A stretch of 24,000 nt of DNA, from the NCBI GenBank assembly GCA_021323375.2, contig JAJPCT020000004.1:1-24000 (forward strand), written 5' to 3'. A program made the position numbers and the translations under genes. Under the pieces are notes generated by a model, which had not been told where the DNA came from, searched no databases, and saw nothing but the letters and a program-made list of their open reading frames with translations. The stretch is from Candidatus Wolframiiraptor gerlachensis. GTDB lineage: Archaea > Thermoproteota > Nitrososphaeria_A > Caldarchaeales > Wolframiiraptoraceae. Below are positions 1,845 through 7,345 of the stretch, in pieces (within the stretch, counting starts at the first letter, position 1; each line of letters starts with the position of its first letter).

Positions 1845-1904
1845 CGTGGGTGAAGCATATGAGCAAGACCACGGCGAGATCACATGGAATATATCTGAAA
1901 AATG

Positions 1905-3062
1905 TTAAGGAAAAAGGGAAGGGGGAGAGGCTGCTCTTAACATGTTGATTATCTTTGTCGCCTCTTGCCTCAACTCCCTCACCCTATCCGCATATTCATG
2001 TAGCCTTCTATGAAGTTCTTTAAGGATCTGTTGCTTATCCAAAATCCTCTCAGCGAATCTCTCATCCGGAATCAGTTCGCAAGCCCTGATTATACTCCTA
2101 ATGGTTGAAGTCTTCTCGATAACCCTTAGCCAATCCCAGACAGGTTTAACGAGATCGCGATCAATTTTGTCTTTCTTAATGAATCGTAAAGCAAGAATTC
2201 TTTTGACCTCCCTGAACGGTTGTAGCAACCTTAGGTTTTTCAAAAGATATTCAACAGCATTTCTCTCCGTAACAGTGAATACGTACATTGGGCGTCTTGA
2301 TTTAATAATATGTTGTGTTGATTTGATAATACGACCTTCAATAATGTGAATTTCGTTTGCGTCATAAAGTCTTGCGAAACCGTAGGGAATTGTTAATGAT
2401 TTAAAGACTTGGTGAATCGTTTTTATGGTTTCTCTTTTCCCGTTGTAGAGCTTGATTGCAAACCAGACGTGTTTTCGATCAGTATGAGTTACTGCTATAC
2501 ATCCATCTCCTGAAATTGCGCCTGATAACAGTTTTAGCCTCTCCTCATTCATGAGTTCTTTGACAGGCTTTTCTAGTTCTCGGATCCAAGACTTAGTGTC
2601 AAGATGTGCTACTAGATGCCACCACGTCATATTATCGTCCAAAATCGGTTTAACCATAGTCCACCCATATCTAGAGAAGAATCGTTGCATTCGATGAGCG
2701 AAGAAGTCCTTAGTAGTATTTACCTTCAATCTAATTGTGTATCGTTGGTAGATAACGTTGAGATCTGTAATTGACAATCCACGTACAATCTGCGCATCTT
2801 CGTCTGGAGCTCGTCGAGGTACTTTATGCCTTTTCGTGCCCATAGGTATATTTTCTCCATTAAGCCAGCGCCATATAGTGTTGCGTCGTACTCGTACTCC
2901 AGTTTTTTCTGTGATTATCCTAGCGATTTCTTCGTAACTAATCCTCCTCTTATATTTATTCATCCGTTCAAATTCCTCGAAAACCAATGAAACTATTTTT
3001 TCTTTTATTTCATCTGGTTGATCTCTATAACAATTCGTCCCCTCCATCTTTAGTATCACCAC
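1905..3062 (-). CDS. HTH + LAGLIDADG-domain protein (free-standing homing-endonuclease-like gene) in an AT-rich island
   Basis: The N-terminus has an HTH-like segment (ISYEEIARIITEKTGVRVRRNTIWRWLNG). A central LAGLIDADG-type motif (LKLLSGAISGDGCIAV) is followed by a typical beta-rich domain. A more likely ATG start is at 3047 (MEGTNCYRDQ). The region is AT-rich; for example, only 20 G+C in 2281-2340. Confidence 0.6.
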   Translation of the reverse strand: MVILKMEGTNCYRDQPDEIKEKIVSLVFEEFERMNKYKRRISYEEIARIITEKTGVRVRRNTIWRWLNGENIPMGTKRHKVPRRAPDEDAQIVRGLSITDLNVIYQRYTIRLKVNTTKDFFAHRMQRFFSRYGWTMVKPILDDNMTWWHLVAHLDTKSWIRELEKPVKELMNEERLKLLSGAISGDGCIAVTHTDRKHVWFAIKLYNGKRETIKTIHQVFKSLTIPYGFARLYDANEIHIIEGRIIKSTQHIIKSRRPMYVFTVTERNAVEYLLKNLRLLQPFREVKRILALRFIKKDKIDRDLVKPVWDWLRVIEKTSTIRSIIRACELIPDERFAERILDKQQILKELHRRLHEYADRVRELRQEATKIINMLRAASPPSLFP

Positions 3063-3583
3063 CCCCCTATTTCATCGTAGACTTCCTGCCATCCCCACCA
3101 TTCTATGGCGTCTTCCAACAGCTCGTATATCTCCGCCCTCAATCGCTCCATCAATGGTGATCCGAGCCACCTAGCGTAGAACCGGCAGAACTCGAAGACA
3201 TCATCCCTGAGTTTACCATAGCTCGTCAGCTTAACCATGAAGTCGGTCTTCGGGTCGGCTAGGAGGTCGAAGAAAGAGTCAACACAGTCTATGAGATGCT
3301 TGAAGTCTTGGAGCGCCCCGGGCCCGAGCTCCGCGAACGCGCCGCCATACCGATCCTCAACATCCCTCAGAATCCTCCTGAGGTCGGAGCCTCCATAGAC
3401 TATAAATCCCTTCCCGGCCATCCACATCACCCCCTCAAGCAGCGCCAGCAGCGGCACTATCAACGACATGGCAATCCACCATATGATCCATGGATCTATC
3501 GGCCTCGGCCACCAACCCCTCCCCCTCTTCATCCTCCTTAGACAAACCATGTCTCCCATCCTCCTCTCCTTCCATGGTTTCAC
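3056..3583 (-). CDS. Hypothetical W-rich protein with one N-terminal TM segment (ORF175)
   Basis: The ORF is 175 aa, and likelier ATG starts at 3559 or 3550 sit after a GGAGAGGAGG run. It has a hydrophobic segment WIIWWIAMSLIVPLLALLEGVMWMAG and the C-terminus AEIYELLEDAIEWWGWQEVYDEIGGW. No family was recognised. Its stop lies 9 nt before the ATG of the downstream LAGLIDADG gene. Confidence 0.5.
   Translation of the reverse strand: MKPWKERRMGDMVCLRRMKRGRGWWPRPIDPWIIWWIAMSLIVPLLALLEGVMWMAGKGFIVYGGSDLRRILRDVEDRYGGAFAELGPGALQDFKHLIDCVDSFFDLLADPKTDFMVKLTSYGKLRDDVFEFCRFYARWLGSPLMERLRAEIYELLEDAIEWWGWQEVYDEIGGW
3072..3130. repeat. Copy A of a ~60-bp conserved sequence (3' end of ORF175); its partner is at 8377-8444
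   Basis: tcatcgtaga...tcctgccatcccc(a)ccattctatggc(g)tc(t)tccaacagctcgtat matches 8377-8444, with a few substitutions, a 1-nt indel and a ~10-nt indel. Confidence 0.8.
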
Positions 3584-3610
3584 CCCCTCGGGCTCGGCCC
3601 AGCCCAGGAG

Positions 3611-3774
3611 GGCGGCGGGCCCCCCGGCGAGCAGGGGCTACTAACCCCACCCCGCAACCGGCCACCCGGAATAAAGGCCGGTATCTAGGGGTGGGGCGTT
3701 CGCCCAAACCCCCGGGGAGCTCCGCCCACCCACCGGGGCAGGCCTCATGGCTCCCTCGGGAAACCCGCCCGCCG
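3611..3774. repeat. Two degenerate, tail-to-tail copies of the GC-rich structured repeat family (E1b 3611-3653 and E1a 3688-3774), forming a long inverted repeat
   Basis: CCCCACCCC (3645-3653) and GGGGTGGGG (3688-3696) are perfect inverted repeats. They enclose CCGGCC (3658-3663) / GGCCGG (3676-3681). E1a shares GGGGTGGGGC, GGCCTCATGGC (compare E2 GGCCTTTATGGC) and CCGCCCGCCG with the full copies. E1b shares GGCGGCGGGC and GGCTACTA...CCCCACCCC with the reverse complement of E3. Confidence 0.55.
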
Positions 3775-4069
3775 AAAGCCTTGCCAACACCCTCCAGGGA
3801 ATTTCAAAGAGTTCTAATCGGATATAATCGGTCGGAGGCTTTTTCTTTCCCCCTCTCGCAGGTAAAAATTTCTTTCAGCTCAGGCACGGTAGAGGAATCC
3901 CTAAATCTAATGTATGAAACTTTCGAGACTTATAAGGCTTCGCCCCTGACCTAGTTTATATGGGTCTAACACATTAAGTTTAGATCTCTATTGACCACGA
4001 TATAGCTAATAGTAATGATGGGAAGAGGGTAGTATAGGAGGTCTTGAAAAATATGGGGGTTGATAATAG

Positions 4070-4762
4070 ATGAGTAGAGAGGTTGAGAAAATTAAGACCA
4101 TCGTTCTCGAGACGTTCTTTGGAACTGCTGAGGTCGGCTTATTCTCGGTGGCGACTGAGAAGATCTGCCTAGTCCCACCACAGCTTAAGCCGAGGCAGAA
4201 GAGGCTGATAAGAGGCGTGCTCGAGGTCGAGGTTATCCCAACGACGATCGCCGGCTCGATACTGTTATCGGCCTTTGCGACGGGCAATAGCAACGGCCTC
4301 CTCCTATCAAACCTAGTCTTGGAGGAGGAGCTTGGCGTAATTAAGAAGCACGTCGGCGACATGAACCTCGCTGTGGTGGAGGGGAAGTATACGGCGATAG
4401 GAAACCTCGTTCTGGCGAATGATCGGGCAGCTCTCGTGAGCGATATTCTCCCAAAGAGCGCTGTGAAGATGATAGAAGATGCTCTAGGCGTCGAGGTTGT
4501 AGTTGGGAGGATCGCGGATAGAAGTTATGTCGGCTCGCTCGCGGTAATAACGAACACTGGCGGCCTAATCTTCGTCGAGGCATCAGAGGAAGAGGAGAAG
4601 ATGCTCTCAGAGCTATTTAAGGTCGAGGTGGTACCGGGCACTGTGAATAATGGCGTAAAGTTCGTTAGAAGTGGGATACTCGCAAATAGCAAGGGCGCTA
4701 TCGTGGGGTCACTAACCACAGGCCCAGAGCTCATGACGATATCTAGAGCTCTCGGGGTCTAA
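4070..4762 (+). CDS. eif6: Translation initiation factor 6 (aIF6)
   Basis: The 230-aa ORF has the pentein-repeat aIF6 pattern (GTAEVGLFSVATEK, IPTTIAGSILLSAFATGNSNGLLL, YTAIGNLVLANDRAALVS, SYVGSLAVITNTGGLI, VNNGVKFVRSGILANSKGAIVG). Confidence 0.9.
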   Translation: MSREVEKIKTIVLETFFGTAEVGLFSVATEKICLVPPQLKPRQKRLIRGVLEVEVIPTTIAGSILLSAFATGNSNGLLLSNLVLEEELGVIKKHVGDMNLAVVEGKYTAIGNLVLANDRAALVSDILPKSAVKMIEDALGVEVVVGRIADRSYVGSLAVITNTGGLIFVEASEEEEKMLSELFKVEVVPGTVNNGVKFVRSGILANSKGAIVGSLTTGPELMTISRALGV

Positions 4763-4773
4763 AGCCAGCCCAT

Positions 4774-5097
4774 CTAAAAGTATATCTGGACGTGCGGGAT
4801 ATTCCCGAATCTTATAATAGCCCTCTCCGGCACAATACCCTTCTCCACCATGTAGGATACAGCTACTTCGCCCAACAGGTTAAGGATCTTCGCCTGAATT
4901 ATGTACTTGTCGAGCTCATCTCGCGCGATTAGGGCACCGCCGTAGAATGCCTCGCTCACCTCCACCGTGAAGCCCTCGCTTACCTCAATCTTCTTCCCGA
5001 GAAGCTCCTCATCGCAAACGGCGACAACGGTCTCGCCAGTCTTCGAATGGTGAACCTTGACCCACACCCTATCCGACGGCATCCCTCTCCACGTCAA
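4774..5097 (-). CDS. DUF424-family protein
   Basis: The 107-aa ORF contains VKVHHSKTGETVVAVCDEELLGK...SEAFYGG...LNLLGE...GNIPHVQIY, which is typical of the archaeal DUF424/COG2412 family. The start may be the internal Met at 5082. Confidence 0.65.
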   Translation of the reverse strand: MTWRGMPSDRVWVKVHHSKTGETVVAVCDEELLGKKIEVSEGFTVEVSEAFYGGALIARDELDKYIIQAKILNLLGEVAVSYMVEKGIVPERAIIRFGNIPHVQIYF

Positions 5098-5160
5098 GGG
5101 TGGTGGCGCGCGAATATAAGTTTCTCGGAAAGATTCAAAAACTCTCTTCCGGAATTACCC

Positions 5161-5901
5161 ATGATCCTCATGGAGGAGGCGTCGAAGGAGGAGCTGATGA
5201 GGAGGATCGCGGGCGAGATAATCCTCTCGGAGAGCCCAGGCCGCGTCATGAGGAAGTGGAGGTCGCTCTTCGAACTCACCCAAGCCGAGGTCGCAAGGCT
5301 CATGAGGATCTCACCGTCAGTCCTCAGCGACTACGAGAATGATAGGCGGAAATCCCCGGGAACAGTGTTCGTGAGGAGATTCGTCCAAGCCCTGATAGAG
5401 GCGGATGAGCTGAGGGGTGGACAGCAGGTGAGAAAATACGCAGTCTTCTACAGGAGTCTGAGCGCGGCAGTGATGGATCTAGATGAGTTCGAGTCTCCGA
5501 GAACAGTTAAGGAGATTGTCTCGGCTGTTAGAGGCGAGGTCCTCGCGGGTGAAGGTCTCCTCGATATGCCGATCTATGGCTACACGGTCATCGACAGCAT
5601 CAAGGCAATAAAGCTCCTCGACGCATACGACTTCCTCCACCTCTTCGGTAGGAACCCGATGAGGGCTCTTATATTCACCTCCGTGACGCGCGGTAGGTCG
5701 CCCATGGTTGCGGCAAGGCTTTACCCGATAAAGCCTAAGCTGATCATAATACATGGGCCGAGGAGGGAGCAGGTGGATAGGCTGGCGATAGAGCTCGCTG
5801 AGCTGGAGAAAATTTGCTTCGCATTATCAACACTCCCAACTGTTGAGGAGCTCATAAATGGACTCAGGTCTCTCAGGGCCGCCGGGCGTGAGGAGAGATG
5901 A
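5161..5901 (+). CDS. HTH (XRE-type) transcriptional regulator, archaeal COG1395-like
   Basis: The HTH segment is LFELTQAEVARLMRISPSVLSDYENDRRKSPG, followed by a conserved C-terminal domain. ATG at 5161 is preferred over the track start at 5047, which would overlap the divergent DUF424 gene. The stop overlaps the next gene's ATG (ATGA at 5898-5901). Confidence 0.7.
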   Translation: MILMEEASKEELMRRIAGEIILSESPGRVMRKWRSLFELTQAEVARLMRISPSVLSDYENDRRKSPGTVFVRRFVQALIEADELRGGQQVRKYAVFYRSLSAAVMDLDEFESPRTVKEIVSAVRGEVLAGEGLLDMPIYGYTVIDSIKAIKLLDAYDFLHLFGRNPMRALIFTSVTRGRSPMVAARLYPIKPKLIIIHGPRREQVDRLAIELAELEKICFALSTLPTVEELINGLRSLRAAGREER

Positions 5902-6818
5902 AGCCGATAAAGGATATCCGGCTATCCCCCGGGATAAAGGTCTCAGAGCTTGTCGAGCAGTTTAGGGAGGCTGGAGGCTTCTCGGCCAAGTAGCTTGGCA
6001 TCGCCGCCAGCATCCTCAAGGAGATGATCGGTGATAAGAAGTGTGTGAAGTTCATATCATTCGTCGGTGCTCTGGTCGCGACGGGCATCAGGAGTGTAAT
6101 CGCGGAGGCGATCAAACGAGGCATGTTCGATGTAATAATCACGACATGCGGCGCCATAGATCATGATATAGCCCGATCCCTAGGCCAATACTATGATGGG
6201 GACTTCTGGATGGATGATGAAGAGCTGAGAGGCAGGGGGATACATAGGCTTGGAAGCGTCTTGATACCCCTAGACTCCTATGGCCCGGTGATAGAGCGCT
6301 TCCTGCAGAATGTTCTTGAGGAGGCGTATTTGGATGGCATGAGGGAGCTAGCGAGCTATGAAGTCTGCGAGCTGATAGGTGAGAAGATTCAGGATGAGGA
6401 GAGCATACTATACTGGGCGCATAGAAGGGGTGTAAAGGTATTCGTCCCGGGGATAATGGATGGGGCAGTTGGCACGCAACTCTGGCTATTCCAGCAGAAG
6501 CATAGGGACTTCAGGCTAAACCTCTTCAAAGATGCTGATGAGCTCGCGGGCATAATTTTCAAGGCCGAAAGGACTGGGGCGCTGATGATCGGCGGCGGCA
6601 TCTCGAAGCATCATACATTATGGTGGAACCAGTTTAAGGAGGGCCTCGACTACGCGATCTACCTAACCACGGCCTGCGAGTATGATGGGAGCCTCAGTGG
6701 CGCCCGGGTCCACGAGGCGGTCTCATGGATGAAGGTTAAGGCTGGCGCAAGGAAGGTAACGGTCTACGGGGATGCGACAATAACCCTGCCACTCATAATA
6801 GCAGCCGCGATGGAGTAG
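5898..6818 (+). CDS. dys: Deoxyhypusine synthase, interrupted by an in-frame TAG at 5991-5993
   Basis: The downstream 264-aa ORF (6024-6818) has DHS hallmarks (VIITTCGAIDHDI, GIHRLGSVLIP, PGIMDGAVG, GGGISKHH, EYDGSLSGA, EAVSWMK). The 31 codons from ATG 5898 (MKPIKDIRLSPGIKVSELVEQFREAGGFSAK) are in the same frame and align with the conserved GFQAxxLG N-terminal motif. The TAG sits at a residue position within that motif. Confidence 0.85.
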
Positions 6819-6821
6819 CCG

Positions 6822-7256
6822 CTATCCACTCATCTCTCGGCTCTTAATTACATCAGCCTTCACAAGCTTCAAGTGTAGTATGCCATTCACGTAAGAGCTC
6901 TCGAGAAGCCTAACCCTACATGGGAGCTTTATCTTCCTCCTGAAGCCCCCTCCACCCCTAAGAAACACCTTATTTTCCAAGACCTCGAAGGAGACCTCGC
7001 TCTCGGGGCCCGGGACCTCAGCCGTCACACTTATCAAGCTATCCTCCTCATGAACCTCGACCGGATATCTCTTCAGCTGCTTCGAGCCCTCCAGCGCCCT
7101 CTTAATCTCCCTAAACCAGTAGAATCCCAAGATCACTAGGATTCCCGCGAGTATGAGGCCTAGGAGGCCCCTCTGAAGCCTCGCCAATACAGCTAGCCCT
7201 AGAAGCCCGAGGACCAGGAGTAGTACCACGAGTGAGAGGCTGCTCCTCGTGGACAA
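6822..7256 (-). CDS. Membrane-anchored small heat-shock protein (Hsp20/alpha-crystallin domain)
   Basis: Two N-terminal hydrophobic segments are followed by an ACD-like region (VEVHEEDSLISVTAEVPGPESEVSFEVLENKVFLRG...RKIKLP...SSYVNGILHLKLVK). Confidence 0.6.
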   Translation of the reverse strand: MSTRSSLSLVVLLLVLGLLGLAVLARLQRGLLGLILAGILVILGFYWFREIKRALEGSKQLKRYPVEVHEEDSLISVTAEVPGPESEVSFEVLENKVFLRGGGGFRRKIKLPCRVRLLESSYVNGILHLKLVKADVIKSREMSG

Positions 7257-7345
7257 GGCCGGAATTCCTATCTAAGTTTTATGGCTGCTTAGGCTTAAAC
7301 CTATGCCTCTTTATTCTCAACAACCCTTCTCAGCCTAAACTTGGT

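Follow-up and report, generated by a model that had tools for sequence, protein, structure and literature searches.

A repeat of about 60 bp that precedes two unrelated mobile-type genes in Candidatus Wolframiiraptor gerlachensis is the conserved 3′ end of the coding sequence in a protein-gene family, here named ORF122 after the usual length of its members (about 120–123 aa). The repeat was noticed in a stretch of 24,000 nucleotides (hereafter, the window), an archaeal sequence of about 52% GC on contig C4 of a 1.28-Mb, 89%-complete metagenome-assembled genome (MAG; G000), where family-model searches identify, among others, the genes for eIF-6, deoxyhypusine synthase, and PAC2. According to our best reading, ORF122 is the conserved upstream, orfA-like leader gene of modular mobile units in thermophilic Nitrososphaeria (Caldarchaeales-like), and we consider it rather probable that these units are cassettes in which a conserved leader gene is combined with swappable nuclease cargo in an arrangement suited to coupled translation.

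The repeat and the ORF122 family

Pairwise alignment of positions 2960–3260 with 8260–8560 matches the segment 3072–3130 (copy A, the last ~20 codons of the open reading frame ORF175) to 8377–8444 (copy B) over ~48 nt at ~90% identity. The copies are direct repeats 5.3 kb apart; a repeat finder recovers them as one pair (family D13), and a 31-mer of copy A occurs twice in the window at up to two mismatches, with 0.00 occurrences expected from 100 shuffles, so that the repeat announced in the preliminary description is real. The alignment also contains the differences described there: compared to copy A, copy B lacks 1 nt after GAATGG and has an extra 10 nt, followed by nine matching bases, CTACGATGA. 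The two copies are alike because both are ends of ORF122-family genes. Copy B is a 5′-truncated, frame-patched remnant (open frame 8351–8449; nhmmer positions 283–335 of 350) that ends in ...TYELLEEAIEWGDGRRFWGIYDEGVKGDENHE, with the reported TAG four codons upstream, whereas ORF175 ends in ...YELLEDAIEWWGWQEVYDEIGGW. Similarity does stop sharply at 8444, as previously noted, but because copy B is truncated and not because a site ends there. ORF175 itself (3056–3583) is a full-length member of the family with a conserved core at 3059–3418 (120 aa). Judging from the usual family length, the protein probably comprises only ~120 aa and starts near 3418, so the N-terminal 55 codons of the frame are probably untranslated.

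Both copies, as well as ORF175, the genes that follow them, and a hairpin RNA considered below, are encoded by the minus strand. The gene after copy A, P2 (1905–3062, 385 aa), codes for a protein with an N-terminal helix-turn-helix (HTH) domain and one sub-threshold LAGLIDADG-like domain, and has a paralogue on contig C21. Its start overlaps or abuts the ORF175 stop (junction 3047–3062). The close start described previously holds, but the ATG lies 8 and not 9 nt past the TGA, and a GTG overlapping the stop (GTGA), as in homologues, is more probably the start codon. The gene after copy B, P3 (7460–8353, 297 aa, true start MSKVIF), is an IS110/TasR-like DEDD recombinase-like gene, and its ATG at 8353 overlaps the TAA of the remnant (ATGAGTAA), again in agreement with the preliminary description. 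Both genes are AT-rich, at 0.37–0.44 GC vs. ~0.55 in the surroundings.

ORF122 is by no means restricted to the window. Searches with tblastn and nhmmer identify 12 loci in the MAG, denoted C4a (window copy A), C4b (window copy B), C7, C16, C3, C21, C23, C12, C6, C26, C18, and C2, seven of which are near full length and five 5′-truncated or broken; the scenario of only two copies with a simple duplication history, named in the preliminary description as one that would speak against it, thus fails. More than 200 relatives occur in hot-spring metagenomes (205 returned by the scan, 80 loci kept), all of them confined to hot-spring MAGs labelled “Thaumarchaeota,” Nitrososphaerota, or Bathyarchaeia. 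The family is narrow, as an exhaustive profile search of 1.84 billion representatives yields 80 clusters and no fusion proteins, and a scan of GTDB genome contigs yields only six loci, with matches including Candidatus Wolframiiraptor and Terraquivivens. It is also patchy, being present in three out of 13 same-genus genomes, with zero to 14 tblastn matches per genome. Many metagenomic fragments of 25–60 aa match profile positions ~65–121, so that remnants consisting of the 3′ end only are recurrent. In the closest relative (locus L056; G005:C24, 227–1017), an intact ORF122 adjoins a fragment of deoxyhypusine synthase (residues 199–264 only), which suggests an independent insertion or rearrangement in the neighbourhood corresponding to the window.

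ORF122 is a real protein gene, given its confident predicted fold and synonymous variation throughout its length. AlphaFold2, supplied with 35 diverse sequences, predicts a four-helix bundle with a mean local confidence (pLDDT) of 88 and a global score (pTM) of 0.80, and the protein is acidic, with a median isoelectric point (pI) of 4.7 and a net charge of −8. Codon identity given the same residue is 0.59 in the last 22 codons and 0.60 in the rest, and hence the 60-mer carries no detectable extra nucleotide-level signal; amino acid identity is lower in these codons, 0.56 vs. 0.68 elsewhere. Comparison of ORF122, P2, and P3 with Pfam, NCBIfam, PHROGs, and PADLOC produced no family above threshold, a sequence-profile search of the PDB with ORF122 produced no match, and Foldseek searches of PDB and BFVD with the ORF122 model produced only generic helical bundles at E ~0.6 or worse.

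Downstream genes and probable exchange of cargo

At all 12 loci of the MAG, a same-strand gene starts within a few bases of the ORF122 stop, and these genes belong to four unrelated families. P3 (~290 aa) is the partner at C4b, C7, C16, and C3; P2 (~385–500 aa, with the HTH domain) at C4a and C21; a 277-aa HTH–LAGLIDADG_3 protein (56 bits) at C23, C12, and C6; and TnpB, recognized by the Cas12f1-like TNB/OrfB_IS605 model (Cas12f1-like_TNB) at 67 bits vs. a cut-off of 26.3, at C26, C18, and C2. P2 scores 13.4–15.5 bits against Pfam LAGLIDADG_1 and LAGLIDADG_3, below the gathering cut-offs of 22.5–23.1, and the same sub-threshold model is found at residues ~170–260 in four out of four family members tested, with the motif SGAISGDG visible; the label LAGLIDADG given to this gene in the preliminary description therefore stands only for a sub-threshold domain within the 385-aa protein.

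We extended the survey to 85 loci, combining the kept metagenomic loci and other fetched loci with at least 150 nt downstream. The partner is a 277-aa-like LAGLIDADG protein in 23, TnpB in 22, P3 in 16, and P2 in nine cases (70 out of 85), and the remaining 15 consist largely of additional HTH or LAGLIDADG_3 proteins, of one unrecognized 400-aa family, and of open reading frames cut by contig ends; one of them, locus L073, is degraded. ORF122 has at least five unrelated partner families. Among the 85 loci, no recognized housekeeping gene directly follows ORF122, and no unoccupied 3′ side was seen either there or among the 12 loci of the MAG. The adjacency of ORF122 to a mobile-type gene is essentially obligate; homologues that never have mobile genes downstream, which the preliminary description regarded as evidence to the contrary, are not what the survey recovers. 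The distance from the ORF122 stop to the partner start is mostly between −30 and +27 nt (70 loci), GGAGGTG lies in or after the last codons, and 5′-truncated remnants retain the 3′ end.

P3 copies that lack ORF122 (C1a, C1b, C25, C5, C17, and C19) have in the same position another small gene, L2, which ends just before the P3 start, as ORF122 does. Similarly, the TnpB family of the C2 type has at least nine copies in the sister genome G002, and all five with fetched upstream DNA are preceded by an L2-like gene and not by ORF122. Comparison of L2 and ORF122 by hhalign (E = 7e-5, 80 columns, probability 62%) and their common pattern F-x-R-x-Y-A...G...M...L...E-I...L-L-E mark L2 as a remote homologue of ORF122, and the gene at C6 is a chimera with an L2 N-terminal and an ORF122 C-terminal part. 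Two TnpB copies (C5 and C10) have upstream of them an internally deleted variant, L3. In the copies examined, nuclease genes of these families thus have an upstream gene of the orfA-type superfamily.

Partner type is scattered over the ORF122 tree and is unlinked from the body of the gene. When the four partner labels are mapped on a tree with 36 rows, 13 changes are required, against a minimum of three and a shuffled mean of 19.5, and one well-supported clade mixes TnpB and P2. The excess of nucleotide identity between ORF122 genes with the same partner over those with different partners is 0.003–0.016 in the gene body and 0.05 in the last 60 columns, a decay of linkage along the gene that is expected from recombination inside ORF122. 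For P3 and TnpB, homology between copies linked to ORF122 and copies linked to L2 sets in only ~12–16 nt before the start codon.

Inserted units in the window and elsewhere

Whole ORF122-containing units are insertions absent from sister genomes at six loci, namely, the two in the window, C16, C26, C23, and C7. Insertion A (1897–4104, minus strand, 2208 bp) consists of a 520-nt upstream region, ORF175, and P2, and lies inside codon 12–13 of the eIF-6 gene. In 12 out of 12 sister genomes with both genes on the fetched stretch, PAC2 and eIF-6 are separated by 17–27 nt; in the thirteenth same-genus genome, G012, the contig begins inside eIF-6. The original 5′ end of eIF-6 (12 codons; 1859–1896, plus strand) was severed by the insertion and is stranded next to PAC2, and the end of the insert (4070–4104, plus strand) supplies a new ribosome-binding site, ATG, and the first 11–12 codons, MSREVEKIKTIV replacing MSKATARSHGIY, so that an essential gene has been rebuilt by the insert. 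Upstream of ORF175, positions 3600–3760 are very GC-rich (0.63–0.66) and carry the motifs GGGGTGGGGC and ATAAAGGCCGG, which resemble those of the P3-type RNA described below in a different order; this segment has neither an Rfam match nor a further copy in the genome.

Insertion B (7305–8488, minus strand, 1184 bp) runs from a left end of 44 nt through the ORF122 remnant, P3, and the RNA to a tail of 45 nt. The sister genomes G005, G002, and G008 lack this insertion, which is flanked by direct repeats of AAACCTAT (7297–7304 and 8489–8496), present as a single copy at the empty site. The insertion cuts a 929-aa UPF0182 gene eight codons before its stop, and a new stop (8485–8487) lies within the insert. 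The AAACCTAT site between UPF0182 and the Hsp20-like gene is also occupied in the sister genome G011, by another insert of ~590 bp (locus L058; G011:C33, ~900–1500), which contains GC-rich sequence similar to the P3 RNA without the P3 gene.

The designation of P3 as a DEDD recombinase, made from the sequence in the preliminary description, is borne out at the fold level. The predicted structure (pLDDT 88) has the RuvC-like DEDD domain and the C-terminal Tnp/RNA-binding domain fold of the IS110 family, and Foldseek matches it with probability 1.00 over 311–332 columns to chains of IS621 and ISCro4, and at 1.4e-7 to TasR (9MTY). Residues D8, E45/E54, D91, and D94 show little or no variation among 31 homologues; S190, at most a candidate for the catalytic serine of the Tnp domain, is invariant in the homologue alignment. 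At the sequence level, P3 has no matches in Pfam (including the IS110 transposase models), NCBIfam, or PDB.

In nearly every P3 gene, the 3′ end overlaps a long hairpin RNA of 125–145 nt with covarying stems, in the window at 7347–7496. The two internal-loop strands of the window RNA correspond to the two flanks of the insertion. The 3′ strand GGGAAATAGGTT is identical over 12 nt to the DNA just outside the left end of insertion B (8490–8501), and the 5′ strand is, over 10 nt, the complement of GTTTAAGCCT just outside its right end (7291–7300); ten out of 200 shuffled targets gave any match of at least 10 nt. What the loop strands GGGAAATAGGTT and AGGCTTAAAC match are the sequences flanking the entire 1184-bp insert, which places the ORF122 remnant within the RNA-guided element; at this site, therefore, P3 did not land beside a resident ORF122. 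Weaker evidence of the same kind comes from C7, where 8-nt loop matches lie at the outer junction of the unit, in the opposite orientation. Rfam searches at gathering scores (whole window) and in E-value mode (3500–4100 and 18400–19100), as well as tRNA scans, returned nothing relevant. A solo GC-rich hairpin RNA of the P3 type with no P3 gene beside it is located at 18786–18915, between a TATA-like AT-rich tract and a T-run, and about a dozen further solo copies are found on other contigs.

Outside the window, three insertions with empty sites in sister genomes contain orfX, ORF122, P3, and the RNA (C16, 2434 bp); orfX, an internally deleted ORF122, P3, and the RNA (C7, 1980 bp); and orfY, a remnant of orfX, ORF122, and TnpB (C26, 3232 bp). 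The fourth (C23, 1929 bp, 94095–96023, L158) contains orfY, ORF122, and the LAGLIDADG gene. Its insertion site is a tRNA gene, and its right end carries a repeat of a tRNA-like 3′ segment, as in integrase-type integration. The small genes orfX (107–133 aa, with an N-terminal CxC...CxxC motif; C18:16256–16654, C16:86923–87264, C7:27543–27848) and orfY (87 aa; C26:6274–6537) are conserved and lie divergently upstream of ORF122 in many units. Neither has a match in Pfam or PADLOC, and neither these genes nor ORF122 match known models of anti-phage defence and toxin–antitoxin systems (PADLOC, Pfam, NCBIfam). In the TnpB units, ORF122 occupies the position of tnpA, with a predicted fold that is not HUH.

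For non-P3 units, guide-like matches between the interior of the insert and the target are not above chance, and among TnpB and LAGLIDADG partners a P3-type RNA was found downstream in a single case, a 3′-end remnant (C18:13429–13464) situated ~110 nt downstream of TnpB. This remnant, of which no second example was found, hints that TnpB at C18 took the place of P3 in what was once a unit of the P3 type. In relatives, the sequences flanking the TnpB unit at C2 (C2:29600–34000, L162) are 68 kb apart or on separate contigs, which points to a rearrangement breakpoint and is the reason why no empty site was obtained for this unit.

Origin of the units and comparison with known systems

Three explanations had been proposed in the preliminary description, of which a composite element with a conserved left part that exchanges its cargo is the best supported, given the five or more partner families, the insertion of whole units, and the scatter of partner types. 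Each unit would consist of a promoter-proximal ORF122, often with divergent orfX or orfY upstream, followed by a nuclease or recombinase gene whose start overlaps the ORF122 stop or lies within ~25 nt of it, behind a ribosome-binding site of the GGAGG type. The downstream gene would be interchangeable, being an RNA-guided IS110/TasR-like DEDD recombinase, TnpB, or one of several HTH–LAGLIDADG proteins, and the cargo would be swapped by recombination within or just after the 3′ end of ORF122. Retention of this end in truncated copies may reflect the need of the downstream gene for the ribosome-binding site and the stop/start arrangement located there. The proposed translational coupling to an ORF175-type leader agrees with this anatomy (stop and start overlapping or 3–27 nt apart, GGAGGTG in the last codons, remnants that keep the 3′ end) and is a candidate mechanism.

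The ORF122 protein may be an accessory factor rather than a transposase, possibly one that modulates or inhibits either the nuclease or some system of the host; its acidity speaks against both DNA binding and transposase activity, and a role as modulator is plausible. It is doubtful that the ORF122/L2 superfamily is a universal, previously unrecognized accessory protein on which the IS110/TasR-like recombinase, TnpB, and LAGLIDADG proteins all depend in thermophilic Nitrososphaeria, whether it tames nucleases as an acidic, DNA-mimic-like protein or inhibits a host system. If so, this would be a plug-and-play architecture of mobile elements, with a constant leader gene and the enzyme as an exchangeable cassette.

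Several observations weigh against the modular cassette. The function proposed for ORF122 is putative, and the protein has neither a relative in sequence or fold nor a match among defence systems. At C4b, C7, C21, and C2, ORF122 is broken and the partner intact, and hence ORF122 is dispensable, at least in cis. The variant L3 retains the 5′ half and not the 3′ half upstream of two TnpB copies. Five insertions compared all against all have only ORF122, orfX, and orfY in common, with no shared element termini, and Y1 TnpA (PF01797) has no match in the 89%-complete MAG, although controls matched. Finally, the ORF122 tree is poorly resolved, with only four out of 33 branches strongly supported.

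The remaining proposal of the preliminary description, an insertion hot spot or attachment (att) site in a resident gene, makes ORF122 a landing site, just past the stop of which separate IS110-like elements, TnpB insertion sequences, and homing-endonuclease elements insert site-specifically. Unrelated nucleases in one slot would indeed recall free-standing homing-endonuclease genes beside conserved phage genes; several different junction sequences exist even within one partner type, and the onset of P3 and TnpB homology just before the start codon, noted above, also fits. However, ORF122 is itself inserted, no ORF122 has been seen with an unoccupied 3′ side, the supposed target has no excess of nucleotide or synonymous conservation, and the interval between the window copies is syntenic in 13 out of 13 genomes. 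Moreover, the guide loops of the window P3 match the flanks of the whole insert, remnant included, and not the ORF122 end, the C7 loop likewise matches at the outer junction of the orfX–ORF122–P3 unit, and the common right flank needed for homing is absent. As the origin of each pairing, a hot spot is thus unlikely.

Far less probable is a reading in which the open frame is incidental and the conserved stretch acts as a non-coding signal in DNA or RNA, be it as transposon end, att core, or guide target. The sharp boundary of copy B and the recurrent 3′-end-only remnants in metagenomes fit such a signal, but the whole 360-nt gene and not its end alone is conserved, the last 22 codons vary synonymously as elsewhere while being less conserved at the amino acid level, and a four-helix bundle is confidently predicted from diverse sequences. 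Simple segmental duplication, or copies acting as attL and attR of one element spanning 3130–8377, which the direct orientation of the copies at 5.3 kb might suggest, is refuted by ten more copies on other contigs, by the separate insertion with its own boundaries around each copy, and by the order of eIF-6, an HTH gene, deoxyhypusine synthase, and an Hsp20-like gene between them, the same in 13 out of 13 same-genus genomes; integrase-type att repeats flanking one element are ruled out likewise, the DNA between the copies being syntenic housekeeping DNA in all 13 relatives.

The modular cassette that we prefer shares features with several known systems. Free-standing homing-endonuclease genes, such as seg and mob of phage T4, spread by intronless homing and place unrelated nucleases between conserved phage genes. 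As there, unrelated selfish nuclease genes occupy one slot beside one conserved gene; unlike them, ORF122 accompanies its nuclease to unrelated sites in the chromosome, and a homologous right flank for homing is missing. Nuclease–immunity and toxin–antitoxin pairs undergo module shuffling, e.g., colicin DNases with their acidic four-helix Im proteins. The likeness lies in a small gene for an acidic helical protein, tightly linked to a nuclease gene with partners mixed, but ORF122 has no sequence or significant fold similarity to these proteins and no PADLOC match, and it is often broken while the nuclease gene is intact. The Avd and 23S-IVS accessory proteins of retroelements are likewise four-helix bundles of ~120 aa encoded beside a mobile-element enzyme, and Foldseek gives a weak likeness of ORF122 to an Avd-like phage protein (TM score 0.62) and to PDB 2RLD (0.43–0.46), not significant at E 0.8–3. 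Avd is, however, basic and ORF122 acidic, and the partner enzyme is different.

Two-gene insertion sequences (orfA/orfB of the IS3 type; tnpA–tnpB of IS200/IS605) also have a small upstream gene with a stop/start overlap to the enzyme gene, and, like them, the ORF122 units are multi-copy, patchy insertions absent from sister genomes. The differences are that ORF122, an acidic four-helix bundle, belongs neither to the HTH proteins nor to the Y1 HUH transposases, that one orfA family serves at least five unrelated enzyme families, and that the units have no common inverted-repeat termini, with no Y1 TnpA found in the genome. IS110/IS1111 recombinases guided by bridge RNA or seekRNA (IS621, PDB 8WT6; ISCro4) and TIGR-TasR (PDB 9MTY) match the P3 fold over its full length, and P3 also has a structured 3′ RNA with loop strands matching the target flanks and a duplicated target core. 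Unlike these systems, P3 has no Pfam IS110 match, a single guide loop, and an ORF122- or L2-type gene inside the left end, and the likeness holds for this one partner family only, not for ORF122; an accessory gene of the ORF122 type is not mentioned in PMC12045711.

In the literature, we found no paper on one leader gene common to TnpB, LAGLIDADG, and IS110-type genes in archaea, and one leader-gene superfamily shared by unrelated mobile nucleases is what is new here. Were ORF122 to act on nucleases or on the host, it might regulate DNA-cutting enzymes in general, among them the compact, heat-stable RNA-guided enzymes that attract interest as tools. The units account for short “orphan” conserved stretches ahead of AT-rich genes in these genomes and document insertions by which essential genes acquire rebuilt ends (the eIF-6 start and the UPF0182 end). 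Mobile elements are usually classed by their enzyme; here, a small unannotated gene is constant and the enzyme variable, with an RNA-guided recombinase, TnpB, and homing-endonuclease-like genes plugged into one slot. Annotation of such elements should take in the leader gene as well.

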